A DNA stretch of 38,140 nt from Candidatus Oleincola secundus (GCA_018400815.1 JAGYLS010000011.1:1-38140), one strand, 5' to 3'; counted from the stretch's first letter, positions 3,845-22,675 are shown. Notes: generated by a model not told the origin, from the letters alone. Program-made: numbers and translations.

Positions 3845-4613
3845 ATGTTTATTTCTTATTCTTATTACTTTAGTTCTATTGCTTGGTCTAAACTTCTCGA
3901 TCTGTGCTGCCCAACAGCTAACCGCTGATGAGATTATTGATAAGGTCAGAGAAAACCAGATGGACTATGAAAACAGCAAGACCCAGGCCGAAATGATTCT
4001 AATCGATGAGGACGGCAAACAGGAGACAAGAGAAATTATCATGTTTGAAAAAGAGGAAGAAGATGACAAAATCACTATGCTGATGCGCTTTCTCTCTCCC
4101 AAGTCAGTAGAAGGAGTAACCCTGTTAAGTATTGAAAACGGAGATAAAATTTATCTTTACATGCCCGCTTATCAAAAACCCCGGAGAATTGCCGGTTCCT
4201 CTAAACAGGAGAACTTTATGGGAACAGACTTCTCCTATGAAGATCTCAGCATGGATTACCAGAATGAAGAATACCATAAAGAATTACTGAAAGAAACCGA
4301 GGAACAATTTGTGTTGGAAGTGATTCCTGATGATGAAGACACTTCCTACAGCAAATTTGTACTCTACGTTAATAAGAAACAATTCTATGTAGAGAAAGTA
4401 GAATTCTATGACCTGGACGAACAGCTGGGTAAGACTCTGGTGATCAAAGAAGTAAAATTTGATGATGAGGGCAAATTCACACCCATGGAGATGGAGATGA
4501 ATGACATTATTGACAAACATCAAACCCAGATGAATATCAAAGAGATCGAATACAACCTGGATCTCTCAGACAGTTTCTTTACTATCCGCACCTTGCAGAA
4601 ACCAAGGTTGTAA
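3828..4613 (+). CDS. Outer membrane lipoprotein-sorting (LolA-like) protein
   Basis: Signal peptide; family motifs MRFLSPKSVEGVTLL, YLYMPAYQKPRRI and FMGTDFSYEDL. Overlaps the MMPL stop codon; RBS AAGGAG. Confidence 0.85.
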   Translation: MINKSKCLFLILITLVLLLGLNFSICAAQQLTADEIIDKVRENQMDYENSKTQAEMILIDEDGKQETREIIMFEKEEEDDKITMLMRFLSPKSVEGVTLLSIENGDKIYLYMPAYQKPRRIAGSSKQENFMGTDFSYEDLSMDYQNEEYHKELLKETEEQFVLEVIPDDEDTSYSKFVLYVNKKQFYVEKVEFYDLDEQLGKTLVIKEVKFDDEGKFTPMEMEMNDIIDKHQTQMNIKEIEYNLDLSDSFFTIRTLQKPRL

Positions 4614-4627
4614 TAACAGGAGGAATA

Positions 4628-5860
4628 TTGATGAATTCTAAATATTACCCAGGCATTCTCTTTTTGCTTAGCATAATGATACTGTGTACTCTACCGGGAC
4701 TGGCATTTGATACCTCACAGACATTAGAGTATGAGGGTTCCTATCTTCTCTCACAGCAGAGAATAAATCATACTCTCACATTCAATATTGACTATTTCCA
4801 GGAAATCACAGATGATATCTTTCTGGAAGGAGATCTGCTTGTACGAACCAGCAATAAAGAATATGCCCGTCCCTTTATGATCGGACCCAATGAACTCTAT
4901 CTCAGTGGCTACAACGTAATTGATAATCTAGACATCAAGGCAGGTAAAGTTATTACCCGCTGGGGGGCAGCTGACTTGTTCAGCCCCCTGGATAATTTTA
5001 ATCCTATGCCACCGGAGGCATCACTGAGCAAACAACCGGATAAGCTGGGTGCCTTGGGAATTAGTGCTACCTATTACCTGGATTACTCCACCTATCTCCA
5101 GGGAGTCTTGCTACCTAAGCTGAAGGTCACACCTTATCCTGATGAGTATCTGAAAGACAGCTACCTGGCAAACTATGGTGCTACTTTACAGGGTCCTGGT
5201 GTAGATAATGTGGTACTTACCTACCAAGAAGCGGAAAATATGGTCTGGGGACTGCGTTTAACTCACAGCTTCCCATCTTTTGATGCTGCTATCAGTTATT
5301 ATCGGGGTTACTACATGGACCCCTTCCCGGTCAGCCTGTCAGCCTCCTCGGGAGTTAATATGGAAATTACCCTGGGTTATCCGGCCAAACAGGTTCTCGG
5401 ACTGGAGTTTCAGGGAGAATTCCCCGGGATCGAAGGGGCAACCTTGCGAGGAGACCTGGCCTATATTATTCCACAGAGTTGGGAATTCCAGGGAGATACC
5501 ATGCTGGAAGAACCCTACCTACAGGCAGTGATCGGAGCAGACTATACCACTGATTCAAATCTGTACCTGAACGGTGGTTTTATTTATGGGCTCCCCTTTG
5601 AAAGAGGTAATAAATCCTCCCCTTACATCTATCTCAATGCCAAGCAGGAGATAGATGACAGTGACTTTACACCCTCCTATGCAGGCATCCTGAGTCTGAG
5701 CGATATGAGTATGGTAAACAACATTGGATTAGACTATCAGCTCACAGAAAGCGTAACGGCAACCATGTCTTATTCTTTCCTGTTGGGAGAAGAACAGTCC
5801 AAATTAGGTCAATTTAAGCGTTCTCAGGGTCTTTATTTCACACTGGAATGGCTGTTTTAA
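4628..5860 (+). CDS. Putative outer-membrane beta-barrel protein (DUF1302-like)
   Basis: Signal peptide, KAGKVITRWGAADLFSPLDNFNP motif, amphipathic beta-strands, and a C-terminal aromatic beta-signal (LYFTLEWLF). Confidence 0.65.
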   Translation: MMNSKYYPGILFLLSIMILCTLPGLAFDTSQTLEYEGSYLLSQQRINHTLTFNIDYFQEITDDIFLEGDLLVRTSNKEYARPFMIGPNELYLSGYNVIDNLDIKAGKVITRWGAADLFSPLDNFNPMPPEASLSKQPDKLGALGISATYYLDYSTYLQGVLLPKLKVTPYPDEYLKDSYLANYGATLQGPGVDNVVLTYQEAENMVWGLRLTHSFPSFDAAISYYRGYYMDPFPVSLSASSGVNMEITLGYPAKQVLGLEFQGEFPGIEGATLRGDLAYIIPQSWEFQGDTMLEEPYLQAVIGADYTTDSNLYLNGGFIYGLPFERGNKSSPYIYLNAKQEIDDSDFTPSYAGILSLSDMSMVNNIGLDYQLTESVTATMSYSFLLGEEQSKLGQFKRSQGLYFTLEWLF

Positions 5861-5925
5861 AGTAGTAAGCGTAGGAATTATCTAAGATATTTAAATCAAA
5901 GGCAGTCCTACGCTTTTGCAGTAAT

Positions 5926-6498
5926 TTATTTGATTAGTTCTTTCCCTACCGAAAATCCCTTGCCTAAAAATTTCCCTATAGAATAATATTCCCTTACTTC
6001 AGGAATATAGAAAACCGGCTCAAAATTACTCCCTAAAATTTTACTATTTTCGTCAAGCAAATTTTCATCGATTTTAATATCCATAATTTCTCCGATAAAT
6101 TCAGTGTGTAACCCAATCTCAATTTCATGAATTACTTTACATTCCAATATTATGGGAAATTCTTTTCCATATGGGGCATCGATAATATCACTCTTTACCG
6201 GCGTAATTCCGGTTTTTTCAAATTTATTGTATTCACGGCCTGATACAATACCATAAAAATCTGCCTCTTCTAAATGTTCCTTAAAAAGTATATTAACCGT
6301 AAAAGCCTTATGGGAGGCAATATTATTATAGGAATAAGTTGCCTTTCTTAAAGAGACATTAACACAGGGTGGCTTTGAACAGCATATTCCTCCCCAGGCA
6401 CAAGCCATTAAATTTGGTTGAAAATCTTTGTCATAACTCCCTACAATAAGTACCGGTACAGCAGCTAAAAATGGTTTTGCACCAATTGATTTCTTCAT
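5926..6498 (-). CDS. Flavin reductase family protein (DIM6/NTAB-like, flavoredoxin-like)
   Basis: Motifs PVLIVGSYD..PNLMACAWGG, FTVNI and LECKVIHEIEIGLHTEFIGEI; RBS AGGAGG. Confidence 0.9.
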   Translation of the reverse strand: MKKSIGAKPFLAAVPVLIVGSYDKDFQPNLMACAWGGICCSKPPCVNVSLRKATYSYNNIASHKAFTVNILFKEHLEEADFYGIVSGREYNKFEKTGITPVKSDIIDAPYGKEFPIILECKVIHEIEIGLHTEFIGEIMDIKIDENLLDENSKILGSNFEPVFYIPEVREYYSIGKFLGKGFSVGKELIK

Positions 6499-10197: not shown

Positions 10198-10353
10198 TGC
10201 TATCCTCCTTTTGATTTATCTCTTAATAGTACATCCAACATAAATACGGATAAGATGATAGATAATTATTATATTTATTTCTATTTTTATTTTAACAATT
10301 TTGAGTCGCTTTAGCTATATATTTTATCAATACTAAAATAATGAATTTTTCTT

Positions 10354-10593
10354 TCTTTATTTAACCATTACCACCTTCTAAGAAGGTGGTAATGGTTAAA
10401 TAAATTGGTTTTACCATAAAAAGATTAAGAGTAGCTTGATGACAATTTTTCAGCTGAAGTCCAAAGTTGGAAGTATTATTGCTTAGAAATATTATAGCTA
10501 TAGGTTAAATAAAAAATCGAAAGAAAAGAGCTAAAAAGTTAAACCTTTTTAGGGGTTCTTAAAGCCACCCGCTATGCGGGTGCGATATTTACT
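10354..10593 (+). mobile_element. Non-coding hairpin-bounded repeat, copy 1 (putative IS200/IS605-derived non-autonomous element)
   Basis: Perfect 23-bp hairpin at 10356-10404. The right end has 38 bp (10556-10593) identical to 32805-32842, including the stem CACCCGC-TAT-GCGGGTG. No ORF. The mobile-element assignment is inference. Confidence 0.6.
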
Positions 10594-10668
10594 TTTCACC
10601 TCTAAAATCATATCAATCGTATACAAAGATCTATAATAATTGCAGAATCATTTAATAAGATTTTTCTA

Positions 10669-10697
10669 TTGACGGAAACATATGTTTGCTTTATAAT
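10669..10697 (+). promoter_or_regulatory. lexA promoter with LexA-type operator in the spacer
   Basis: TTGACG (10669-10674), 17 nt spacer, TATAAT (10692-10697). The palindrome AAACATATGTTT (10676-10687) resembles the Gram-positive GAAC-N4-GTTC box. Confidence 0.85.
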
Positions 10698-10741
10698 AAA
10701 ATTACTCAGAGGCAATAAAAATTCATTGATAGGAAAATTTT

Positions 10742-11353
10742 ATGACTTATAACGAAGAAGTATTGACTAAAAAACAAAAGAAAGTACTTGAAGTTATTCG
10801 TATTAATATTCAGGAAACAGGTTATCCGCCAACAGTTCGGGAATTATGCAGGGCATTGGGAGTTCATTCATCTGCTACGGCTTTCAAATACCTGAAAATT
10901 CTGGAAAAGAAAGGCTACATCAGGCGAGAGAAAGAAAAAACAAGGGCCATTAAGCTAACACCGCAAATTCGAAACTTCCCTTTAGTCGGCAAAGTAGCCG
11001 CCGGAAACCCTCTATTGGCATTACAGGAATACACCGAAATTATTCCTGTACCGGAAGAGCTGGCCGGTAATACAGGCAGTTTCCTGGTTCAGGTTGAGGG
11101 GGACAGCATGATCGGTGATCACATCCTGAATGGAGATTATGTGATGATTAATCCTCAAAGTAATGCTGATAATGGAGATATTGTTATCGCCCTTGTCAAT
11201 CAGGAAGAAGTAACAGTCAAGCGATTCCATAAAAACAAAGACAAAATTAGTCTAATGCCCTCCAACCCGGCTTATCAGCCCATTATTACCCGGGATGTTG
11301 TCATCCTGGGCAAAGTAACGGGTATTATTCGCAGATTCAATGGGAGGAAATAA
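10742..11353 (+). CDS. lexA: SOS repressor LexA
   Basis: HTH GYPPTVRELC, Ala-Gly cleavage site VGKVAAG, catalytic Ser in GDSM and catalytic Lys in VTVKR. Confidence 0.95.
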   Translation: MTYNEEVLTKKQKKVLEVIRINIQETGYPPTVRELCRALGVHSSATAFKYLKILEKKGYIRREKEKTRAIKLTPQIRNFPLVGKVAAGNPLLALQEYTEIIPVPEELAGNTGSFLVQVEGDSMIGDHILNGDYVMINPQSNADNGDIVIALVNQEEVTVKRFHKNKDKISLMPSNPAYQPIITRDVVILGKVTGIIRRFNGRK

Positions 11354-11362
11354 GTAAAAATT

Positions 11363-12178
11363 ATGCTTTACATCGGAACTTCAGGTTTTAGTTACCAGGA
11401 CTGGATTGGTCCTTTTTATCCGGAAAATATTAAAAAAGGGAATATGCTTCATCTTTATGCCCAACAATTTAATACGGTGGAGATTAACTCCTCCTATTAT
11501 CGCATTCCACCGGCAGCTGTTTTCTATCACTTGCAGCGCAAGGTACCGGATAATTTTAAGTTCTCGGTAAAAGCCAACCGGGAAATGACTCACACCCGGG
11601 AGAACAATCAAGCAGTCTTCCAGGAATTTAAGACATCCTTACAGCCACTACTGGACAGCGGTAAATTAGGCTGTATTTTAGCTCAATTCCCCTACTCTTT
11701 TCATTACAATAGAAAAAACCGGGATTATCTTTACTATTTGAAAGAAAAAATGAATGAATTCCCCTTAATTGTTGAATTTCGCAATACTTACTGGATAAGA
11801 GAAGAAGTATTTGATTTTCTCAAAAAAAACGAAATAGGATTCTGTGCAGTAGATCAGCCCCCCTTAAAAGGGTTAATTCCCCCCATAGCAGAAACAACTT
11901 CTAATTTAGGTTATATCCGTTTTCACGGACGCAATAAAGAAAAATGGTGGCAGCACGAACAAGCTTATCAGCGCTATGATTATCTTTATTCCGAACAGGA
12001 ATTGAAGGAATGGGTACCAAAGATTACACGAATTAGCGCACAAACTACCAACCAGTATATTTTTATGAATAATCATTACAAAGGGAAAGCAACTAAAAAT
12101 GCTCTGATGCTAATGAAATTACTTCGGCAAGAAACTATACCGAATGAACTGACAAACAAAACAAGAGAAAATAAATAA
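11363..12178 (+). CDS. DUF72 domain protein (YecE/YunF-like)
   Basis: Motifs YIGTSGFSYQDW, FNTVEINSSYYRIP, FKFSVKA, LAQFPYSF, VEFRN, YIRFHGRN, YDYLYSEQELKEW and FMNNH. Confidence 0.93.
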   Translation: MLYIGTSGFSYQDWIGPFYPENIKKGNMLHLYAQQFNTVEINSSYYRIPPAAVFYHLQRKVPDNFKFSVKANREMTHTRENNQAVFQEFKTSLQPLLDSGKLGCILAQFPYSFHYNRKNRDYLYYLKEKMNEFPLIVEFRNTYWIREEVFDFLKKNEIGFCAVDQPPLKGLIPPIAETTSNLGYIRFHGRNKEKWWQHEQAYQRYDYLYSEQELKEWVPKITRISAQTTNQYIFMNNHYKGKATKNALMLMKLLRQETIPNELTNKTRENK

Positions 12179-12200
12179 TTATATTTTTTTCGCCGTTATG

Positions 12201-12214
12201 GCAAACATATGTTC
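12201..12214. promoter_or_regulatory. Second LexA-type operator, upstream of the dnaE RBS
   Basis: GCAAACATATGTTC. Its reverse complement GAACATATGTTTGC shares 13 contiguous bases with the lexA operator (AACATATGTTTGC). Confidence 0.75.
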
Positions 12215-12233
12215 ACTAAAGAAAGGAAAACAG

Positions 12234-14921
12234 ATGAGTTTCATCCATTTACACCTGCACTCTCAATACAGTTTGCAAAATGGGTTAGGAAATATTGAGC
12301 AGATTATAAACAAGGTCCTGGAATTAAAAATGAACTCCGTAGCACTAACTGATCATGACGGAATGTATGGGGCTATTGAATTTTATAAAAAATCTATTTC
12401 TGCAGGAATAAAACCAATTATTGGTTGTGAAATCCGGGTCAAAAGTAAATTTTTACCTGAACAGATAACTCACCTGGTGCTTCTGGCTCAAAACAATAGT
12501 GGATACCGCAATCTATGCCAATTAATTAGCCAGGCCCACCTATCCAATCCCCTGCAGATACCTGCTATTGACCGGGAAACAATCTCAGAATACTCTGAAG
12601 GACTTATTGTTCTCTCCGGGTGCCTGCAGGGAGAAATACCTCTACTTATTGCCCGAAAAAAATACCGGGAAGCAGAAAGAACTGCCTTGTGGTACAAAAA
12701 ACTATTCGGGACTGAAAATTTTTACCTGGAAATTTCCTTTCATGGCTTAGAACAAGAAAAATTAATTAATCAATATATTGTCGATTTGAGCAAAAAGTTA
12801 TCTATTCCCCTGGTAGCCACCAATAACGTTCATTACCCAGAAAAGGAACAGGCCCCTTTTCAAAATATGGTTAACAGTATTGCCAGTCAGAGCACCCGGA
12901 AATGCTTTCACTATAATTCCTTACCCAACAATCAGTATTATTTGAAATCATGCCGGGAAATGAAAGAGCTTTTCCCTCATTTGCCGGAAGCAATAAAAAA
13001 CACGGAAAAAATTGCCGGGAAATGTCAGCTGAAACTTGAATTAGGCAAAATTCGGCTACCCTCTTATCAGCCTCCTGGGTCCTATTCGGCTCCGGAATAC
13101 CTAGAGAAATTATGCCTGCAAGGCTTAAGAAAATATTATCCGGACCCTTCCAGCCAGGCTTTTTACCGTATGAAATATGAATTGCAAATTATTAACCAGA
13201 TGGGTTTTGCTGGCTATTTCTTGATTGTTAGAAATATTGTTCAATTTGCCAAACAGAATAATATTCCCGTCGGGCCGGGAAAAGGATCTGCAGCCGGTAG
13301 TTTAGTATCTTACCTGCTTAATATTACCGAAGTAGACCCGCTAAAATTTAAGCTATTCTTTGAAAGATTTTTAAATCCTCAACGCATTGACTTACCTGAC
13401 ATTGATATTGATTTCGGACAAATCGGCAGAGATAAAGTGATTGATTATATTTTTAAAAAATTCGGACGGGAACAGGTAACTCATGTCTGTACTATCAATA
13501 CTTATGCTGCCCGTTCTGCCGTACGGGATGTGGGCAGAGCCCTGGGATTTTCTTACCAGGAATTAAACAAAATTGCAAAAATGATGCCTTACTTTTCTTC
13601 ACCGGGAGTTATCAGTGCTTCTTTAAGACATTTGCCTGAACTAAAAAAGCTTTCTTATCAGAAAGAACCTTTTCGTTCCTTATTTTCTTATGCTCAATTT
13701 ATGGAAGGAAAACCACGTCATCTCTCAGTTCATGCCTCAGCCATGATTATTGCTAATCAGCCGCTAGCCAATCTCATTCCGCTGGAACTAAGCCCGGAAG
13801 GAGAAATCATCAGTCAATATGAAAAAGAAGGTATTAAGGATATGGGGCTATTAAAAATTGATATTTTGGGTTCTCGCAGCTTAACGGTAATCCAAAAAAC
13901 CCTACAGAATCTTGATAAAGATAAAATTGGCATAAATTTAAAAAATATACCCCTGGATGACGCACGAACTTTTTACACCCTGAAAAAAGGGAAAACTCTG
14001 GGTGTTTTTCAATTGGAAAGTTCAGGGATGGCTTCTTTATTAAAACAACTGTCACCATCCTGCCTGGAAGATTTGATTGCCGCTCTTTCTCTTTACCGTC
14101 CTGGACCTTGGGATAGCGGTATGACCAAGCAATACCTGGAAAGAAAGCATGGATACGCAAAAATAGAATACCCGCATGAACGGATAAAAGAAATACTAAA
14201 AGATACCTACGGAGTTATTCTCTACCAGGAACAGGTAATGCAGGTTGTCTCGGCCATCGCCGGGCTAAATCCAGGTGAAGCTGACCTTTTTCGCAGAGCA
14301 ATAAGTTCTCGATCACCTGTTATTATGGAAGAACAACGTGTTCTATTTTTAAAAAAATCTTCACAACAGGGACTTAATCGAGAAGAAGCCGAATATATAT
14401 TTAACCTGGTTGCCAAATTTGCCTATTACGGCTTTAATAAAGCACACAGTACCTCTTATGCATTTCTTTCTTATCTGACCTGTTATCTTAAAGTGCATTA
14501 TCCGGCACACTATCTTGCTGCCCTGCTTACCTATGGAATGGGCTATTATGACATGGATCGTTATATACAGGAAGCTCGCCGTTTTCAAGTCCGTATTTTA
14601 TCGCCTGATATGAATAAAAGTAATGCCGGTTTCTCTGTAGAGGGTAAAGCTATCCGAATAGGACTCTTAAGAGTAAAAGGCCTGGGCATTAAACAAATAG
14701 AACATATTTTAAAAACAAGGGACAAAGATGGCCCTTTTCTGTCTCTGCATGACTTTTGTACTAGAATTGATTCTGCTAGAATTACTCGTACTGTTATCGA
14801 AAACTTGATTAAAGTAGGTGCTTTTGATTTTATAGCATACCCTAGATCTGTATTGCTAAATATATTGCCGATTGTTCTAAAGGAAGTCAGAAAGGAGAAA
14901 AAACAATGTCAACTCTCATAA
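12234..14921 (+). CDS. dnaE: C-family DNA polymerase (DnaE-type alpha subunit; PHP + polymerase + HhH, no OB/CTD), probably accessory and error-prone
   Basis: PHP start FIHLHLHSQYS, catalytic PDIDIDF and KIDILG, plus GVFQLES, LYRPGP and YGFNKAHS. Start moved to the ATG at 12234 (RBS AAAGGA); the ORF track starts at 12198. Confidence 0.9.
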   Translation: MSFIHLHLHSQYSLQNGLGNIEQIINKVLELKMNSVALTDHDGMYGAIEFYKKSISAGIKPIIGCEIRVKSKFLPEQITHLVLLAQNNSGYRNLCQLISQAHLSNPLQIPAIDRETISEYSEGLIVLSGCLQGEIPLLIARKKYREAERTALWYKKLFGTENFYLEISFHGLEQEKLINQYIVDLSKKLSIPLVATNNVHYPEKEQAPFQNMVNSIASQSTRKCFHYNSLPNNQYYLKSCREMKELFPHLPEAIKNTEKIAGKCQLKLELGKIRLPSYQPPGSYSAPEYLEKLCLQGLRKYYPDPSSQAFYRMKYELQIINQMGFAGYFLIVRNIVQFAKQNNIPVGPGKGSAAGSLVSYLLNITEVDPLKFKLFFERFLNPQRIDLPDIDIDFGQIGRDKVIDYIFKKFGREQVTHVCTINTYAARSAVRDVGRALGFSYQELNKIAKMMPYFSSPGVISASLRHLPELKKLSYQKEPFRSLFSYAQFMEGKPRHLSVHASAMIIANQPLANLIPLELSPEGEIISQYEKEGIKDMGLLKIDILGSRSLTVIQKTLQNLDKDKIGINLKNIPLDDARTFYTLKKGKTLGVFQLESSGMASLLKQLSPSCLEDLIAALSLYRPGPWDSGMTKQYLERKHGYAKIEYPHERIKEILKDTYGVILYQEQVMQVVSAIAGLNPGEADLFRRAISSRSPVIMEEQRVLFLKKSSQQGLNREEAEYIFNLVAKFAYYGFNKAHSTSYAFLSYLTCYLKVHYPAHYLAALLTYGMGYYDMDRYIQEARRFQVRILSPDMNKSNAGFSVEGKAIRIGLLRVKGLGIKQIEHILKTRDKDGPFLSLHDFCTRIDSARITRTVIENLIKVGAFDFIAYPRSVLLNILPIVLKEVRKEKKQCQLS

Positions 14922-15409
14922 AATTTGAAACAAAAACCGTAGAGAACAATTTATTGCTTCAGGAAACTATCCCTGCCTACAACTTTTCTCCTTCTGCTAT
15001 TTTAAAGATAGAGAAGGAAATTTTAGGAATCTATCTCAGTGCTCATCCCCTTTCAATATACCGACAGAAAATAGCAAGACATTCATCACATAAATACCTC
15101 CCTATTAAAAGTCACCATATTGGCCAGCTGACTCCCGGTCGGCCTGTTTTGATTGGCGGTCTCCTGGTCCAAACCAGAAGGCAATTTACCAAACATCACG
15201 AAGTAATGGCTTTCCTGTTATTGGAAGATGAAACAGGTTTTTTTGAAGCTATTGCTTTCCCTGATATTTTTAATAAGTATTTTTCTTTATTTGTTAAAGA
15301 CGCACTACTCTTGATTCAAGGTAATACAAGCAACAAAAGTGGGGAAGAAAAAATAATCATACAGGAAATAAGCAATATTCACTCCTGTCTCGAGGGAAAT
15401 ACAGCATAG
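14906..15409 (+). CDS. DnaE C-terminal OB-fold module as a separate ORF
   Basis: EKEILGIYLSAHPL and MAFLLLEDETGFFEAIAFP match the DnaE OB region. It has its own RBS AGGAG (14893-14897) and overlaps dnaE by 16 nt. Confidence 0.8.
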   Translation: MSTLIKFETKTVENNLLLQETIPAYNFSPSAILKIEKEILGIYLSAHPLSIYRQKIARHSSHKYLPIKSHHIGQLTPGRPVLIGGLLVQTRRQFTKHHEVMAFLLLEDETGFFEAIAFPDIFNKYFSLFVKDALLLIQGNTSNKSGEEKIIIQEISNIHSCLEGNTA

Positions 15410-15415
15410 CTAAGT

Positions 15416-16639
15416 ATGGAAGGAAAGGAAATTCAAAAAATGCCTGCTCAAGAAAAACGTTCTATTATTCATCTTGATCTGGATGCTTTTTTTGCCTCGG
15501 TAGAACAACGAGACAATACCATATACCGGAATAAGCCACTTATTGTGGGTGGTAGATTGAACCAAAATGGCGAACTATCCCGCCGGGGGGTAGTTTGTGC
15601 TGCTTCTTATCAGGCCAGAAAATACGGTATTCATGCCGGTATGCCCATCTGGGAAGCACAACAGAAATGTCCTGAAGCGATATTTGCCCCAGCCCGGATT
15701 CGATATTACACTCTGGCTTCCCGGCAGTTCTTCCGGATATGTAGTGAATATACCCCTCTGATTGAACCTTTGAGTATCGATGAAGCCTTTTTGGATGTAA
15801 CGGGATGTAAATCATTATTCGGATCAGCAGAAGTAATTGCCCAAAAAATTAAAACCAGAGTCAACAAAGAACTACATTTGCCTGTTTCAGTAGGAATGGC
15901 TTCTAACAAATTCCTGGCTAAGATTGCTACCAATCTGGGTAAGCCGGATGGGTTCTTTGTCCTTTCCGATGATAAAGTTTCAGAAACCTTATCTGGCCTG
16001 TCCATCACTAAATTATGGGGAATTGGACAAAAAACAGCTGAAATATTAAATCGTTCCGGCATCTTTACGATAAAACAGTTAACTCAGATGCCGGATATTA
16101 TCCTGCAAGAAATATTGGGAGAAAATGGCAGCAAAATAAAACAATTAGCACAGGGTATTGACAACAGTCCGGTCTGTCCTATCGAAGAGGTTAAATCAAT
16201 CGGGCGAGAGATGACTTTCCCGGAAAATATTTCTAATAAGGATAAATTGATTAAAATTCTTCTGGGGCTCAGCCAGAATATTGGCTATACTGCGCGAAAA
16301 AGAGGATATTCAGGAAAGACAATTACCTTAAAAGTTCGTTTTCCTAATTTTAAAACCCTGCAAAAATCTGCTTCACTCCAACAGGCTACCAGTTTGGATG
16401 ATATTATCTTCCAGAAATCCAGAAATTTATTGGATTTAATAACTATCAAGCCACCGGGAATACGTTTGTTAGGGATTAAACTTTCTTCGCTGAAGCATGG
16501 TAAACAGCCAAAACAACTCAGTTTTTCCCAGGACCAGGTCCAAGAAGAAAAATGGGTTGCTCTGACTCAGTCAGTAGATAAAATCCGTGAAAAATATGGT
16601 AAATACCTTATTCAACGGGCATCACTTTTAAAAAAATAA
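15416..16639 (+). CDS. dinB: DNA polymerase IV (Y-family)
   Basis: Motifs IIHLDLDAFFASVEQ, AASYQARKYGI, SIDEAFLD, NKFLAKIA and LWGIG, plus a clamp-type motif QLSF near the C-terminus. Confidence 0.95.
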   Translation: MEGKEIQKMPAQEKRSIIHLDLDAFFASVEQRDNTIYRNKPLIVGGRLNQNGELSRRGVVCAASYQARKYGIHAGMPIWEAQQKCPEAIFAPARIRYYTLASRQFFRICSEYTPLIEPLSIDEAFLDVTGCKSLFGSAEVIAQKIKTRVNKELHLPVSVGMASNKFLAKIATNLGKPDGFFVLSDDKVSETLSGLSITKLWGIGQKTAEILNRSGIFTIKQLTQMPDIILQEILGENGSKIKQLAQGIDNSPVCPIEEVKSIGREMTFPENISNKDKLIKILLGLSQNIGYTARKRGYSGKTITLKVRFPNFKTLQKSASLQQATSLDDIIFQKSRNLLDLITIKPPGIRLLGIKLSSLKHGKQPKQLSFSQDQVQEEKWVALTQSVDKIREKYGKYLIQRASLLKK

Positions 16640-16655
16640 TATCATTTCTAAAAAG

Positions 16656-19244
16656 TCATAAATGAATCAGCTCAAACTGGGAACCTAAAGTAGGGTCTTT
16701 CCAGACTTCAATCCTCACCGGGAAAGCATCCTTGAGTAATGATAAATGAGTAATCACCAGTATTTTATCAAAATCATCCTGAATAGCATGAATAGCCTGA
16801 ATTAATTTTTGTAATCCATCCTCATCTTGTGTTCCAAAACCTTCATCAATCACAAGGGTCCTTAAGCGAGCTCCGGTTCGATAAGTCAATAATTTGGAAA
16901 GGGCAATCCGGATAGCAAAATCAATACGAAATGTTTCTCCACCACTATAAAGCTCATAAGGTCTAACACCCATATCATCATGAATTTTAATATCCAGGGT
17001 TTCCCTTATATCACCACTTTTTAATTCTTTCAAGGACTCCAGACTAATTGTTGTTCTTTCGCTGGACAGTTGTGATAAAATCACATTGGCTTCCTCTTCC
17101 AGTTCCGGAATAGCATTCTCAATTATCATAGATTGAATGCCATTTTTACCAAAAGCAGTATTTAGTTTTTGATAAATTTCTTTCTTGTGTAGCTGAAATT
17201 CTTTTTGTTTTCCGATTTTTTGTTCTTCTTTCTGGTATTCTTCTATTTTAGCTAATTTCTCCTGGCATGCTCCTTTTTTTTGGAAAAGTTGATTACAACT
17301 TTGCTGTAATTGATTAAATGATTCCTGCTGAGTCTGTAATGCTTTGTCCATTTCGGGCAATTCTTCCAAATTTTTAATAATCTCTTGATATTCCTTTTTC
17401 AATTTAATGATTTTGGCTTTTTTGTGTTCCAATTGATTATCTATTTCTGAATGTTCCTTTTCCAAATTAAGCATCGTTATTTTTGCTTCGGATAATTTCT
17501 CTTTCTGTAAAGGTGCTTCTTTAAAATGTTCTAATTCCCTGTTAATTCTAATGTATCTCTTATCATCATATTCTTGCTTCTGAATTTTTTTCTCAATTTC
17601 AGTTAACTGATTTCTTTCATTCCGGGCAAACAGTTTCTGACTAATCTGCTCTTGTTGATTTTTAATTTCCTGCATCAACTCTTCTGATTGCTCTTCTGCT
17701 TTTTGGCCTTCTTTAATCAAAAAAGAGAATGCAGTTAGCTTATTTTGAATTTCTTCTTTTTGTTTTAGCTCATTACGATTTTGCTTCCATTCCTGCTGCA
17801 GTATATTTTTCTTATTTGATAATTCTGTAACTTCTTCCATTAGATCCCTTATCTCATGATTTTTCAGGGCAATCTCTTTCTCCGTATTTTGCCTGATTAT
17901 TTTTATTTTTTGCTCATCCAAAGGAGATTGACATAATGGACAATTACCCTGTTTCCTCTGGCTGAGTAGGTCGATTTTTTCCTGATTTTTTTTTATTTCA
18001 TCCCTGAGTCTTTTTGCTTGATTATTTTTGCTTTCGATTTTTACATTCAATTGATTTCCTTCTTGCTGAATATGCTCTTGCCTTTTAATCAGTACATCAA
18101 GTCGTTCTATTTTTGATTTTAATTTTTGAATTTCCTTTTGCTGACTTGATAAAGAATTTACCTTTTCCCGTAGTTCGTGATATTGCTTTTTCTTCTGTTC
18201 TAATTGAACTAAAAGATTGCCCTTTACTTTTTCAATTTGTGCTTCCAATTCTCTTTTGACCTTGTCCAACTCCCGGTATTTCTGCATTAAACTTATCATA
18301 CGCTGATTCTCATTATATAAATTTTGATATTTATCATAATCAGCTAAAATCTGTTTTTCACGGGACAAGACTAACTGATAGTCTTTGATACTTTGCTCTA
18401 TTATCCTTTTTCTTCTTAGATATACCTGCAATTCTTTTTCATCTGAATTAATACGGGTTACCAGTTCTTTTTCTCTTTCCTGTTCATAATGCAATTTGTT
18501 CTTTTTCTTTTCTAATTTTTGTAAATATTCTCTTATTTGTTTAATTTTTAGGTTATTATTTCTCTCATTCTCCTGTATTGATCGAATCTCTTCTTCATGT
18601 GCACTTTTTTGGGCAATCTCCTGATTGATTTGTTCTAATCTGTTTTTTAAAGTTAATAGTTTCCCTTCCATTTCCCGTAAATGCTGTCGCGACAACACCG
18701 AAAGTGCTTCATAATGAGAAAGTCCAAGTACCTCGGATAAAATCTGTTTTCGCTCCCGGGCACTTTTCCGCGTAAATTCATCGACTCTTCCCTGCAAGAT
18801 AAAAGCAGAATTAATAAATGTCTCATAATCCATTCTTAACAATCGGTTAATTCTTTGCTGAGTTTGTCGAATAGAGGGAGAAGATAGGGAAATAAAAGCT
18901 GATTTTTTTTCCTCAAAAACCTGTAATTCCAATTCGGAATGATTTTTATTTTTTAACTTGGAAAATTTTCTGATAATACGGTAACGTTCGCCTTCCAGGT
19001 CAACAGTCAAATCAACCCACATTTGGTTTTCGCCTATTTTAAGCAATCCGCTGTCTGCTTTTCTATCCTGACTCGCTTTCCTGCCCTCACCCCAAATAGC
19101 CCAGGTTAATGCATCCAGCAAAGCTGATTTTCCCTGACCGTTTTTACCGGAAAGACAGGCAATGCTGAATTGAGTAAAATCAAGAGGAGGAACCTCTTCT
19201 CCATAACTCAAAAAGTTAAACATCTGTAATTTCACAGGTATCAT
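16656..19244 (-). CDS. sbcC: SbcC/Rad50-type SMC-family ATPase
   Basis: Walker A GKNGQGKS, Q-loop ILQG, zinc hook CPLC in the coiled coil, signature YSGGE, Walker B LVIDEGFG and H-loop VITH. Confidence 0.92.
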   Translation of the reverse strand: MIPVKLQMFNFLSYGEEVPPLDFTQFSIACLSGKNGQGKSALLDALTWAIWGEGRKASQDRKADSGLLKIGENQMWVDLTVDLEGERYRIIRKFSKLKNKNHSELELQVFEEKKSAFISLSSPSIRQTQQRINRLLRMDYETFINSAFILQGRVDEFTRKSARERKQILSEVLGLSHYEALSVLSRQHLREMEGKLLTLKNRLEQINQEIAQKSAHEEEIRSIQENERNNNLKIKQIREYLQKLEKKKNKLHYEQEREKELVTRINSDEKELQVYLRRKRIIEQSIKDYQLVLSREKQILADYDKYQNLYNENQRMISLMQKYRELDKVKRELEAQIEKVKGNLLVQLEQKKKQYHELREKVNSLSSQQKEIQKLKSKIERLDVLIKRQEHIQQEGNQLNVKIESKNNQAKRLRDEIKKNQEKIDLLSQRKQGNCPLCQSPLDEQKIKIIRQNTEKEIALKNHEIRDLMEEVTELSNKKNILQQEWKQNRNELKQKEEIQNKLTAFSFLIKEGQKAEEQSEELMQEIKNQQEQISQKLFARNERNQLTEIEKKIQKQEYDDKRYIRINRELEHFKEAPLQKEKLSEAKITMLNLEKEHSEIDNQLEHKKAKIIKLKKEYQEIIKNLEELPEMDKALQTQQESFNQLQQSCNQLFQKKGACQEKLAKIEEYQKEEQKIGKQKEFQLHKKEIYQKLNTAFGKNGIQSMIIENAIPELEEEANVILSQLSSERTTISLESLKELKSGDIRETLDIKIHDDMGVRPYELYSGGETFRIDFAIRIALSKLLTYRTGARLRTLVIDEGFGTQDEDGLQKLIQAIHAIQDDFDKILVITHLSLLKDAFPVRIEVWKDPTLGSQFELIHL

Positions 19245-20491
19245 ATTTCATAGCCTCCAAGAGATTCATTTGTATCTTTCAATTCTTGTTGGAGATTATG
19301 AGTATATTCCTTTAATTCCTTCTCCCAGGATTGCCAATCATGTAATTGTACATATTCTGATAGAGCAGAAAATATATCCATTTCCTCAGAAAGAGAACTC
19401 CTTCTGGTTCTTGATTTTCTTTGAACATTTCTGGTAATTCCGGTAACTAAAAAGGCTTCTCTTAATGCTTCGTTTATTTTTCTAAAGTCAAGCTTCTCTT
19501 CCTGATCCTCAGATATCTCATAATGTATACGGATGATAGCATCTTTCAAATCATATTTTTCAATCTCTTTAATAAACCTATCTGTTGGATTATCTGTTCC
19601 TCTAATTTTTACTTCAATGGTAAGCATCTTACGAGTCGGAAGTGAAATAAACTCATATTCAACTTTACCTTTCTTATCAATACTAGCAATACAAAACCCT
19701 TTATCTTCTTTTTCTTCACCAAAATTAATTCTTTCCATACTACCTGAATAAATAACAGGAAGTTTGCCGGAAAGGTTTAAATTCTGATATCGGTGAATAT
19801 GCCCCAGGGCTATGTAATCAAGGGGAGAATCGATAAAAAATTGAACCGGGATAACCGGGTCATTTCCTATTACAGCATAATTTTCAGAACCTGAAAATAA
19901 AGCTTCAGCAACTGTCAGATGGGCAGCCAGTATTTTTGGATATCGTAAATCCAGTTTAGCTATCAGATCTGTTATAGTTTTCATAAGACGTTTTTTTATT
20001 TTTTTATTAATTACATCTGTATCATCATTTCTATATTCATCTTTTTCAAGATACTGATTTCTGGTAGGCCAGGGAATCCCAATGACCTGGATAGGACCCT
20101 TAACAGTTTGCAAATTAATAAGACCAGGTTCAATAACAACATGAATATTGGGAATATTTAATGTCTGGAAAATATCCAAAGCACTGGCTCTACCATAAGT
20201 TAGGGGATTATCATGATTACCATTAATCAAGATAGTAGATATGCCGGCTTTACTTAACCGGTAAATTTGACTGGCAAATTCCCTTTGATGGGTTGGGCTG
20301 GGACTATTGTTTTTATAGGCATCACCGCAAAAAAGGGCAAAATCAACTTTTTCCTCAATAGCAATATCAATTGCCGTAGTTAAGGACTTTATAAAATCAT
20401 TTAAACGTGAGTGAAGACCGCTTTTACTATCAAAGCGCCCATAATTTTCTACTCCCAGGTGGATATCCGCAAAATGAAGAAATTTAATCAT
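19241..20491 (-). CDS. sbcD: SbcD/Mre11 nuclease subunit
   Basis: Metallophosphoesterase motifs HFADIHLG, GDAY, GNHD, YIALGHIH and YSGS. Overlaps sbcC by 4 nt. Confidence 0.92.
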   Translation of the reverse strand: MIKFLHFADIHLGVENYGRFDSKSGLHSRLNDFIKSLTTAIDIAIEEKVDFALFCGDAYKNNSPSPTHQREFASQIYRLSKAGISTILINGNHDNPLTYGRASALDIFQTLNIPNIHVVIEPGLINLQTVKGPIQVIGIPWPTRNQYLEKDEYRNDDTDVINKKIKKRLMKTITDLIAKLDLRYPKILAAHLTVAEALFSGSENYAVIGNDPVIPVQFFIDSPLDYIALGHIHRYQNLNLSGKLPVIYSGSMERINFGEEKEDKGFCIASIDKKGKVEYEFISLPTRKMLTIEVKIRGTDNPTDRFIKEIEKYDLKDAIIRIHYEISEDQEEKLDFRKINEALREAFLVTGITRNVQRKSRTRRSSLSEEMDIFSALSEYVQLHDWQSWEKELKEYTHNLQQELKDTNESLGGYEI

Positions 20492-20506
20492 AACCCTATC
20501 CTTGCT

Positions 20507-21271
20507 TTAAAAAATTAGGTCAATACCAATAGGACAGTGGTCAGAACCTGTTACCTCTGATTGAATGAAAGCTGACTTTAGATTGTCTTTCAAATTATTA
20601 CTAATAAAAAAATAATCAATTCTCCATCCAACGTTCCGTTCTCTAGCCCTAGTTTTGTAATCCCACCAACTATACTGCCCCGGTCCCGGATGAAAATGAC
20701 GGAATGTATCAATAAAGCCAAGTTTAATTAAACGATCAATCCATTCTCGCTCAATGGGAAGAAAGCCGGATATTTTTTCGTTTTCTTTAGGTCTGGCCAA
20801 ATCAATCTCCTGATGAGCAGTATTGACATCCCCGCAAATAACTATTTTCTTGCCCTCTCGGAGCAAATCAGCTATTCTCTTTAAAAATGTTTCATAATAA
20901 TCCATCTTATACTGTAATCTCTCCTTGGATGCCTTGCCATTCGGGAAATAAACATTGAATAAAATAATATCTTGGTATTCTGCTTCAATCAATCTACCTT
21001 CTTTGTCAAACCTTGGCAATCCCAATTCATAGGATACTTTCTCAGGTATAACTTTACTCCAAAGTGCCACCCCACTATACCCTTTTCGCTCAGCTTGTGC
21101 AAAATATCCATTGTAATCAGGTCTCTCTATAAGCTTTTTGGGCAATTGATCCAAATGAGATTTTGTCTCCTGAATACAGTACATATCTGCCTGTTCTGAA
21201 TCAAACCATTCTAAAAAATTTTTCTTATATATTGCCCTCAAACCATTTACATTCCACGATAATAAACGCAT
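20507..21271 (-). CDS. xth: Exodeoxyribonuclease III / AP endonuclease
   Basis: Motifs SWNVNGLRA, CIQETK, YFPNG, GDVNTAH, GWRIDYF and GSDHCP. Confidence 0.95.
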   Translation of the reverse strand: MRLLSWNVNGLRAIYKKNFLEWFDSEQADMYCIQETKSHLDQLPKKLIERPDYNGYFAQAERKGYSGVALWSKVIPEKVSYELGLPRFDKEGRLIEAEYQDIILFNVYFPNGKASKERLQYKMDYYETFLKRIADLLREGKKIVICGDVNTAHQEIDLARPKENEKISGFLPIEREWIDRLIKLGFIDTFRHFHPGPGQYSWWDYKTRARERNVGWRIDYFFISNNLKDNLKSAFIQSEVTGSDHCPIGIDLIF

Positions 21272-22048: not shown

Positions 22049-22675
22049 TTACTTTGGTCTTAATTCTGCTGCAAAAGGTTTGCAAGTATTTTTATCTATC
22101 AACAATTTTATTCTATAACCGGATGAAACATAATTCTTTTTACTGGCACTTTCATGATTTGCAATTATAGTGTTATCAAATTTACATTTCCCTTTACAAT
22201 TACACTTAATCCATTTCCCCTCTTTTGAATAAACCGCAATATGTAAATATTTTGTTGGTATATCGGGGAACTTCTTGATTATTATAGGAACACTTTGAGC
22301 CACAATACGCTGCATAACTTTGTGGAACAGGTCATTCCCAATCTTTTTTTTAAAAGCAGAAAAAGTAGAATGAGCAGGCGTTTTGAGAAAATGATGGAAT
22401 CCACACAGTACACAATACTTGGTATTAAAACGTAACTTTTCGGCTAAATCCCGATTTGACTTTACTTCACCCAGATATATTAATAGTTGTGCTTTGAACA
22501 ATGAAACAGGGCTGTAAACTAATTCTTTTTTGCAATAATAATGGCCTTTAACCATGGAGTCTATAAAAGACCAATCAATCGACTCATAGATAATTTTAAG
22601 CGGGTCATTTTTTTTAATCTTTTTGTAGGCTTCATAAGTAGAAAATGAAAATTGTTGTTTTTCCTTTTTCTCCAT
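22049..22675 (-). CDS. Transposase N-terminal (DUF772/InsH_N-like) domain protein lacking a full DDE domain
   Basis: DPLKIIYESIDWSFI, YSPVSLFKAQLL..SNRDLAEKL and PAHSTFSAFKKKIG resemble IS5/IS1182-type N-termini. Only 208 aa; no terminal inverted repeats seen. Confidence 0.65.
   Translation of the reverse strand: MEKKEKQQFSFSTYEAYKKIKKNDPLKIIYESIDWSFIDSMVKGHYYCKKELVYSPVSLFKAQLLIYLGEVKSNRDLAEKLRFNTKYCVLCGFHHFLKTPAHSTFSAFKKKIGNDLFHKVMQRIVAQSVPIIIKKFPDIPTKYLHIAVYSKEGKWIKCNCKGKCKFDNTIIANHESASKKNYVSSGYRIKLLIDKNTCKPFAAELRPK

Follow-up and report, generated by a model that had tools for sequence, protein, structure and literature searches.

A predicted LexA-controlled operon of one Atribacterota order that joins DUF72, DinB and an optional second, DnaE1-like polymerase

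Introduction

Does an operon in which a dnaE paralog stands beside lexA and an intact dinB encode a damage-tolerance system of its own kind, or a variant of one already known? The operon in question lies at positions 10,742 to 16,639 of a 38,140-nucleotide (nt) stretch of DNA from Candidatus Oleincola secundus (GCA_018400815.1, JAGYLS010000011.1:1-38140), which we call the window and which belongs to a metagenome-assembled genome of the Atribacterota (86% complete, 2,021,837 bases, 213 contigs). The error-prone C-family polymerases recognized so far are DnaE2 enzymes, accompanied by ImuA and ImuB or, in a prediction of 2026, by active Y-family enzymes and RecA. An earlier note, made from the sequence of the window, had proposed that the five genes lexA, DUF72, dnaE, OB and dinB form a distinct, ImuA/ImuB-independent system with two active polymerases, in which DUF72 takes the slot of ImuA.

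Here, we find that the operon's dnaE gives the genome a second C-family polymerase in addition to a replicative DnaE1, and that the segment consisting of a LexA-type box (box 2), dnaE and OB is an optional cassette within an older lexA-DUF72-dinB core operon, from which it has been lost repeatedly. As judged from sequence, we think it reasonably probable that the locus is an SOS-type, self-repressed damage operon of one Atribacterota order, with two predicted operators, in which lesion bypass or repair synthesis would fall to an intact DinB and to a DnaE1-like polymerase of core and OB parts, impaired in proofreading and lacking clamp and tau contacts, and in which the DUF72 protein would process lesions.

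Results

Open reading frame prediction combined with Pfam and NCBIfam searches identified the five genes on the plus strand. Together with the control elements predicted upstream of and within the operon, they are as follows.

10669..10697, plus strand: predicted sigma-70 promoter of the operon (TTGACG, 17 nt, TATAAT; 11 of 12 consensus positions)
10675..10688, no strand assigned: LexA-type box 1, GAAACATATGTTTG, within the promoter spacer
10742..11353, plus strand: lexA, 203 amino acids (aa); TIGR00498 equivalog, 204.7 bits against a cut-off of 110.95; LexA_DNA_bind and Peptidase_S24 domains
11363..12178, plus strand: gene of the DUF72 protein, 271 aa; PF01904, E 2.5e-67, 227.5 bits against 25.3
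12202..12215, no strand assigned: LexA-type box 2, CAAACATATGTTCA, 18 nt 5' of the dnaE ATG; second-best position weight matrix (PWM) match in the genome
12234..14921, plus strand: dnaE paralog core, 895 aa; PHP, pol3_alpha (palm, thumb and fingers), finger and HHH_6 ((HhH)2) domains
14891..14897, plus strand: Shine-Dalgarno sequence AAAGGAG for the OB gene, within the 3' end of dnaE
14906..15409, plus strand: OB-fold subunit of the DnaE paralog, 167 aa; PF01336; colinear with DnaE1 model positions 933-1073
15416..16639, plus strand: dinB, 407 aa; NF002677, 340.9 bits against a cut-off of 256

With the dnaE start taken as 12234, the genes are separated by 9, 55, -16 and 6 nt, just as the earlier note had described them. 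An alternative ATG at 12198 would overlap box 2, and we place the start at 12234 because the homologues in a large protein collection are 895 aa long. The lexA gene is the sole match to the lexA model in the genome. All five genes are under purifying selection, with ratios of nonsynonymous to synonymous substitution rates (dN/dS) of 0.06-0.21; the dnaE core lies at 0.065-0.14 and OB has the highest values, 0.16-0.21. Each of the five genes is partly covered by RNA-library contigs from three studies, which match at 90-99% identity and leave some stretches uncovered; one contig of 672 nt spans lexA and DUF72. These contigs carry no strand, ends, levels or gene ranking and may include DNA carry-over, and we regard them as weak evidence that the locus is transcribed.

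Another contig (C210) of the same genome carries a separate, full-length dnaE, which has 1163 aa in its open frame and is 43% identical to the paralog. That the operon enzyme might be the genome's sole C-family polymerase, a possibility the earlier note had left standing, is ruled out by this gene. An ordinary DnaE was likewise found in each of the 41 relatives searched, at about 44% identity, and the open frames of its complete copies measure 1160-1210 aa. The window-type paralog has a far narrower distribution. Among 86 genomes of the phylum it is found, at 63% identity or more, in 17 of the 22 genomes of one family (f1, that of the window) and in 18 of the 30 of a second family of the same order (f2), and nowhere among the 34 genomes of the remaining five families. 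In two further f1 genomes the paralog is cut by contig ends. Operon-type DUF72 (at least 65% identity) and DinB (at least 57%) are likewise found only in f1 and f2. In a collection of 5.8 billion proteins, where scoring was applied to the 8000 candidates with the most words in common and the top 120 were listed, identity among the matches listed steps from 63% to 47% with nothing between.

The order of the genes, lexA-DUF72-dnaE-(OB)-dinB, was found in 20 of 20 loci from 20 relatives, 18 with all five genes and two cut by contig ends, which settles in the affirmative a further point that the earlier note had left in doubt, namely conservation of the arrangement elsewhere. A scan of genome contigs that yielded 80 loci returned the same arrangement in four, all from Atribacterota; seven were of a Rhizobium type, in which a dinB-like gene lies 3-5 kb off on the other strand, and the remaining 69 had dnaE only.

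Within f1 and f2, the dnaE part comes and goes. The lexA-DUF72-dinB operon occurs without dnaE and without box 2 in the genomes G004 (f1, 98% complete), G022, G030 and G038 (f2), and DUF72 is directly followed by dinB in G033 (viewed from the end of DUF72 to dinB) and in G076 (judged from coordinates). Two genomes carry remnants: 34 dnaE codons fused to the last 66 OB codons in G012, and box 2 with approximately the first 19 dnaE codons in G025. It is because of these dnaE-less operons and remnants that we regard box2-dnaE-OB as a cassette in an older operon, and it has been deleted independently at least twice. The proposal that DUF72 occupies the slot of ImuA does not survive this comparison, as the core is lexA-DUF72-dinB and the box2-dnaE-OB segment its optional insert.

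By curated hidden Markov models (HMMs) the paralog is DnaE1-like. Its core passes the DnaE1 equivalog PRK05673 even without the OB part, with 1062.7 bits against a cut-off of 1002, and it fails NF004225, the model of the error-prone polymerase DnaE2, with 662.1 bits against a cut-off of 939. Its identity to ordinary DnaE1s is about 43-47%. Alignment to the T. aquaticus Pol III alpha subunit revealed the GSAAGS motif, which had earlier been called DnaE1-like, as well as the catalytic aspartates of PDIDID and KIDILG, and none of the 88 paralogs has lost any of the three polymerase aspartates. Many columns are invariant over 22 paralog sequences down to 63% identity.

The earlier description of a degenerate PHP site holds as well. 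The nine-ligand string of this site reads HHNHEHCNH in the window and HHDHEHCNH in 86 of the 88 members of the clade, and it is canonical in 27 of 27 other DnaEs. The eighth ligand is Asn in those 86 paralogs and Asp in the 27 others, and Asn as the third ligand is seen in the window copy only. Positions 3 and 8 are the two sites where PDB entry 3e0d departs from 2hpi, differences that we take to be engineered changes of the exonuclease site. The eighth-ligand Asp aligns to residue 226 in chain 7pu7_A. A published rule gives the active PHP motif as HHDHEH[C/H]DH and classes any departure from it as 'inactive' (PMC12926913), and by this rule the paralogs miss the active motif. A PHP Asp-to-Asn allele of M. 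smegmatis DnaE1, which may or may not affect the same column as in the paralog, serves as a proofreading-deficient variant (PMC11348249).

The paralogs also differ from ordinary DnaEs in the parts that follow the (HhH)2 segment. In six of six aligned ordinary DnaEs a QxxLF-type motif (Q-x-x-L/F-F) lies after (HhH)2, and a further C-terminal domain of about 90 residues follows the OB domain; the paralogs have no such motif and end just past the OB fold. A survey of 2013/2014 had already noted rare DnaE1 variants whose truncation point lies past the OB domain, as well as a single second copy of DnaE1 (PMC3919608).

In f1 the paralog is split, with an open frame of about 900 aa, and in f2 it is fused, with 1048-1080 aa; in alignments the OB protein matches the C-terminal portion of the f2 fusions. 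The detached OB domain remarked upon earlier is thus a conserved, translationally coupled split gene in f1, where AAAGGAG(A/G) and a start codon for OB (11 ATG, one GTG) are kept in 12 of 12 loci and the dnaE stop lies 13-44 nt past the OB start in all of them. Conservation of the split, the Shine-Dalgarno sequence and the start rules out a sequencing or assembly error at the junction, and no indel was found there in four DNA runs from four studies, one of which may be the source sample. A programmed frameshift at a slippery site is ruled out as well, as the f1 loci do not share the A6 run of the window. Among relatives the OB part is 58-69% identical and the core 75-90%. Between the window (14906-15409) and a locus of the same genus (L036, 3185-3682), OB has a synonymous divergence (dS) of 1.2 and a protein identity of 69%, and its neighbours have a dS of 0.18-0.36 and identities of 90-93%, which suggests that the OB segment was exchanged by recombination.

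Upstream of lexA, TTGACG-17-TATAAT is the top promoter found by a consensus scan of 10200-17000. The frame TTGAC...TA(T/C)A(A/C)T, with a spacer of N17/18, recurs in 20 of 20 upstream regions (the window and 19 loci), and so does a palindrome of the form (A/G)AAC-N4-GTT(T/C) within the spacer, which in one relative has the exact form CGAACATATGTTCA. GAAC-N4-GTTC is the LexA operator type of Gram-positive bacteria. The earlier note had pointed to two matching LexA-type boxes, and boxes 1 and 2 are indeed near-identical palindromes. Box 2 follows DUF72 in 14 of 19 loci, the compared segment of the other five ending at or before the box; it is missing in the clean dnaE-less operons and kept in the G025 remnant. 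The strict box motif occurs seven times in the whole genome, twice in this operon and once 5' of the helicase gene described below. A loose pattern is not enriched in the window (three matches against 5.4 expected), and support for the boxes accordingly comes from position and conservation, not from counts. From their likeness to the Gram-positive type, the position of box 1 in the promoter and their conservation, we predict that the boxes are LexA sites. A LexA with an S24 autopeptidase domain and a palindrome overlapping its own promoter are both present. In the box 2 region the consensus scan found no plus-strand promoter and no terminator.

Several further observations concern the boxes and their surroundings. 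The sequence CAAACATATGTTCA recurs on contig C186 near position 6053, the third-best LexA-type box in the genome, approximately 108 nt 5' of a gene (2982-5945, minus strand) for a 987-aa superfamily 2 (SF2) helicase of Ski2/Lhr-like type with a winged-helix-like C-terminal end, which is a possible further member of the regulon. Between the DUF72 stop and box 2 (12180-12200 in the window, and the same place in loci L016-L035) lies a T-run, TTATATTTTTTT or ATTATTTTTTTT, that is conserved in both families and is neither a clear terminator nor a clear promoter. In several f2 loci (L029, L032, L033 and L035), the spacer from box 2 to dnaE measures 230-470 nt and contains GC-rich inverted repeats, e.g. 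GGGGTTCGATTCATCGAACCC, which may be small repeat elements or a leader structure.

The DinB protein contains the domains IMS, IMS_C and IMS_HHH only and is the single Y-family (PF00817) match in the genome. Its DxD and DE catalytic residues, which the earlier note had considered intact, align with those of E. coli Pol IV (4ir1_F), and the FF of the nucleotide pocket is kept too. A clamp-type motif, Q-L-(S/D/K)-(F/L) (QLSF in the window), and the tail are retained in 18 of 18 complete orthologues. The tail reads KWVALTQSVDKIREKYGKYLIQRASLL and the N-terminus of the genome's own RecA ALKMAMENIEHRFGKGSIMKFS; the window tail aligns ungapped to RecA residues 13-35 with a score reached by one of 5000 shuffles, and for two f2 tails the corresponding figure is 20-22 of 5000.

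The DUF72 protein matches PDB entries 1VPQ (TM1631; E 5.4e-59) and 1VPY (E 4e-28). TM1631 has been modelled as an endonuclease-IV-like, lesion-recognizing enzyme (PMC3828134), and a 2025 paper places the DUF72 fold near UV-damage endonuclease and reports DUF72 and lexA to be enriched around polB2 (PMC11791011). By homology we infer that the operon protein is a putative DNA-lesion endonuclease of the TIM-barrel family. A second DUF72 paralog, 42% identical to the operon copy, lies outside the operon on contig C90 (10999-11712) of the same genome, and distant DUF72 genes like it occur in most Atribacterota genomes.

To place the paralog we used quick maximum-likelihood trees of 52 or 28 rows, rooted on four DnaE2 sequences and with no Bacteroidetes DnaE2B sequences included. 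The paralogs form one clade (support 100) on a long stem (0.65-0.67), outside the clade of all sampled DnaE1s, for which the Shimodaira-Hasegawa-like approximate likelihood ratio test gives 100 with 52 rows and 99 with 28. In the 52-row tree the paralog clade stands beside two sequences that are positive for the DnaE2 model and sub-threshold. A tree constrained to join the paralogs with the Atribacterota DnaE1s reached a log-likelihood 37.9 units above that of the free quick search (approximately unbiased test, p-AU 0.826). The paralog may accordingly be a fast-evolving duplicate of the lineage's own DnaE1, or it may descend from an old or DnaE2B-like lineage.

Discussion

The closest published analogue of the operon is the predicted DnaE2B-PolY-RecA module. 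Timinskas et al. (Nucleic Acids Research, 2026; PMC12926913) associate DnaE2B, in genomes without ImuA and ImuB, with an active PolY and RecA, a prediction made from co-localization and AlphaFold with examples from Bacteroidetes. Modules free of ImuA and ImuB that combine a C-family with an active Y-family polymerase are thus already in print as a prediction. For the claim of a distinct two-polymerase system this means that the conserved cassette and the second C-family polymerase beside DnaE1 stand, and that the idea of the pairing is not new. The likeness extends to several features. Here, too, the genome lacks ImuA and ImuB, an active PolY adjoins an accessory, non-essential C-family polymerase, the PHP site is off the active motif, and the Y-family protein carries a clamp motif together with, possibly, a motif resembling the RecA N-terminus. 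In contrast to the published module, the C-family enzyme passes the DnaE1 and fails the DnaE2 model, a distinction drawn by models and not by comparison with DnaE2B sequences; it is split into core and OB in one family; and lexA and DUF72 belong to the operon, in which the dnaE part is optional and has its own LexA-type box. We therefore regard the operon as a variant beside the DnaE2B-PolY-RecA modules, since its polymerase fails the DnaE2 HMM and since lexA, DUF72, a split OB subunit and a second operator come in addition. Among the papers listed on DUF72, on LexA, on Atribacter, on DnaE classes and on the PHP domain, none describes this operon.

The ImuA-ImuB-DnaE2 (ImuC) system is similar in that an operon under LexA-type control joins a Y-family protein and a C-family polymerase, the latter without a tau-binding C-terminal domain, with a deviant PHP site and accessory to the replicative DnaE1. 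It is dissimilar in that the operon described here has DUF72 and lacks a gene for a RecA-like ImuA, the Y-family protein retains its catalytic residues and carries no ImuB-C domain, and the polymerase is not DnaE2 by HMM. The absence of ImuA from the cassette, claimed earlier, is confirmed: none of the five proteins matches RecA-type families, and the RecA-family matches of the genome are all on other contigs. Nor was an ImuB-like or DnaE2-type gene found in the 86%-complete genome. With DnaE1/Pol III alpha (T. aquaticus 2HPI, E. coli 2HNH/5FKU, M. tuberculosis 7PU7) the paralog shares the domain order through OB, GSAAGS and the three aspartates. It departs from the canonical architecture, PHP-Pol-(HhH)2-OB-CTD (C-terminal domain) with an internal clamp-binding motif, in having neither the tau-binding CTD nor the internal QxxLF; furthermore, it differs in the PHP Asp-to-Asn change, in the separate OB polypeptide of f1, in the LexA-type box upstream and in being dispensable and repeatedly lost. 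Finally, lexA-dinB-type damage operons, such as the lexA-dinB of Geobacter, resemble the present locus in the linkage of lexA, dinB and DUF72 behind a LexA-type operator, and the dnaE-less variants are of this kind; what sets the full operon apart is the insertion of box2-dnaE-OB between DUF72 and dinB.

In the SOS-type damage operon that we favour, cleavage of LexA after damage would derepress the five genes. DinB would dock on the sliding clamp, and perhaps on RecA via its tail, and insert opposite lesions; the DnaE paralog, impaired in proofreading and lacking tau contact, would extend from there or fill gaps outside the replisome; and the DUF72 protein may act as a nuclease on damaged DNA. 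A number of observations weigh against this picture. The dnaE part is gone from at least eight related genomes that keep dinB (at least six in which it is missing and two with remnants), and DinB and DUF72 therefore do not need it. A single Asp-to-Asn change in PHP need not end exonuclease activity, and most of the clade retains eight of the nine ligands. Of three tests of a RecA-like DinB tail, two were negative: BLASTP of the tail gave no match to the RecA N-terminus, and a profile of 18 tails missed that N-terminus among the 6442 open reading frames of the genome, matching residues 200-206 instead when run on RecA by itself; for one f1 tail, moreover, 760 of 5000 shuffles reached the alignment score. 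With respect to regulation, it is by likeness and position that the boxes are assigned to LexA, and recA has no box within about 300 nt upstream and no above-threshold PWM match on its contig, so that the LexA regulon looks very small.

A rival explanation is a module for repair synthesis instead of one for mutagenic bypass. In such a scheme, DUF72 would nick the lesion in the manner of UV-damage endonuclease (UVDE) or endonuclease IV, and the DnaE paralog, or DinB where the paralog is absent, would refill the patch, amounting to an SOS-induced alternative excision repair. The invariant association of DUF72 with lexA and dinB while dnaE is optional fits this scheme, as do the proposal, by modelling, that the homologue TM1631 is an endonuclease-IV-like lesion enzyme (PMC3828134), the structural proximity of DUF72 to UV-damage endonuclease with its enrichment near polB2 and lexA (PMC11791011), and the presence of sbcC, sbcD and an ExoIII-family gene directly downstream on the other strand. 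However, we found no nuclease activity for any DUF72 protein in the portions of the DUF72 literature at hand, a patch-filling polymerase has no obvious need for an altered proofreading site, and DinB is the classic bypass enzyme; on balance we hold this explanation to be unlikely, if worth keeping in mind.

Two further explanations concern the polymerase itself. The paralog could be a plain member of DnaE2B, and the locus an ordinary DnaE2B-PolY-RecA module that was missed since the survey used complete genomes; indeed, Atribacter laminatus is the sole Atribacterota genome among the entries listed in the survey's genome table (PMC12926913). The position of the clade outside the sampled DnaE1s, by two sub-threshold DnaE2-model-positive sequences, speaks for this, as do the features common to the paralog and DnaE2, namely the missing C-terminal domain, the altered PHP site and the Y-family partner (PMC12926913). 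Yet the enzyme clears the DnaE1 equivalog without its OB part and stays far below the error-prone model, the constrained tree that joins it with the Atribacterota DnaE1s is the better one by likelihood, and the PHP changes are minimal, at one or two of nine ligands, which makes plain membership in DnaE2B quite improbable to us. Alternatively, the second dnaE might be a duplicate in the course of being lost, without a distinct role, leaving the function of the operon to LexA, DUF72 and DinB. The split in one family, the repeated absence and the two remnants, and an OB part that evolves faster than the core could all be taken as signs of decay. Against decay stand the low dN/dS of core and OB, the aspartates invariant in every paralog, the columns unchanged in 22 sequences to 63% identity, the split junction kept with its Shine-Dalgarno sequence and start in all 12 f1 loci, and the conserved operator-type box that the dnaE module has for itself; we consider this last explanation very improbable.

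A broader proposal would be that a DnaE1-derived polymerase became, independently of DnaE2, an SOS-controlled accessory with impaired proofreading by losing its clamp and tau contacts, and entered a pre-existing lexA-DUF72-dinB lesion-processing operon as a detachable core-plus-OB extender. This would be a second, convergent origin of a mutasome that couples C-family and Y-family polymerases, with DUF72 as a lesion-nicking nuclease. We advance it tentatively, as more doubtful than not. What is new in any case is the lexA-DUF72-dinB core operon with box2-dnaE-OB as an optional insert, and the two deletion remnants. A polymerase that still scores as DnaE1 here bears the hallmarks of an accessory enzyme, namely SOS-type control, an altered PHP site and the absence of clamp and tau tails. 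Its fused, split and deleted natural forms constitute a comparative series for what the OB domain and a second polymerase add to DinB. Furthermore, the uncharacterized DUF72 family is set in a small, defined damage operon, in which a role in DNA repair becomes testable. The hosts are uncultured Atribacterota of the subsurface and of sediments, where little is known of mutagenesis and damage tolerance.

Additional observations

The genes directly past the operon are convergent to it. They comprise sbcC (AAA_23/SbcC Walker B), sbcD (Metallophos) and an ExoIII-family endonuclease gene, at 16656-21271 on the minus strand, and together with the operon they make up a local cluster of DNA-repair genes.

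In a relative (G013), contig C1 (locus L142, 2576-13021) carries a third DnaE-like gene of 1108 aa and 33% identity, accompanied by DnaB-like helicase, DnaG-like primase and RecA-like genes. This gene probably belongs to a phage or mobile-element replication module and is unrelated to the operon.

Farther along the window, an open reading frame with a DUF772 transposase domain (22049-22675, minus strand) lies between a DeoC-family aldolase gene and ftsZ.

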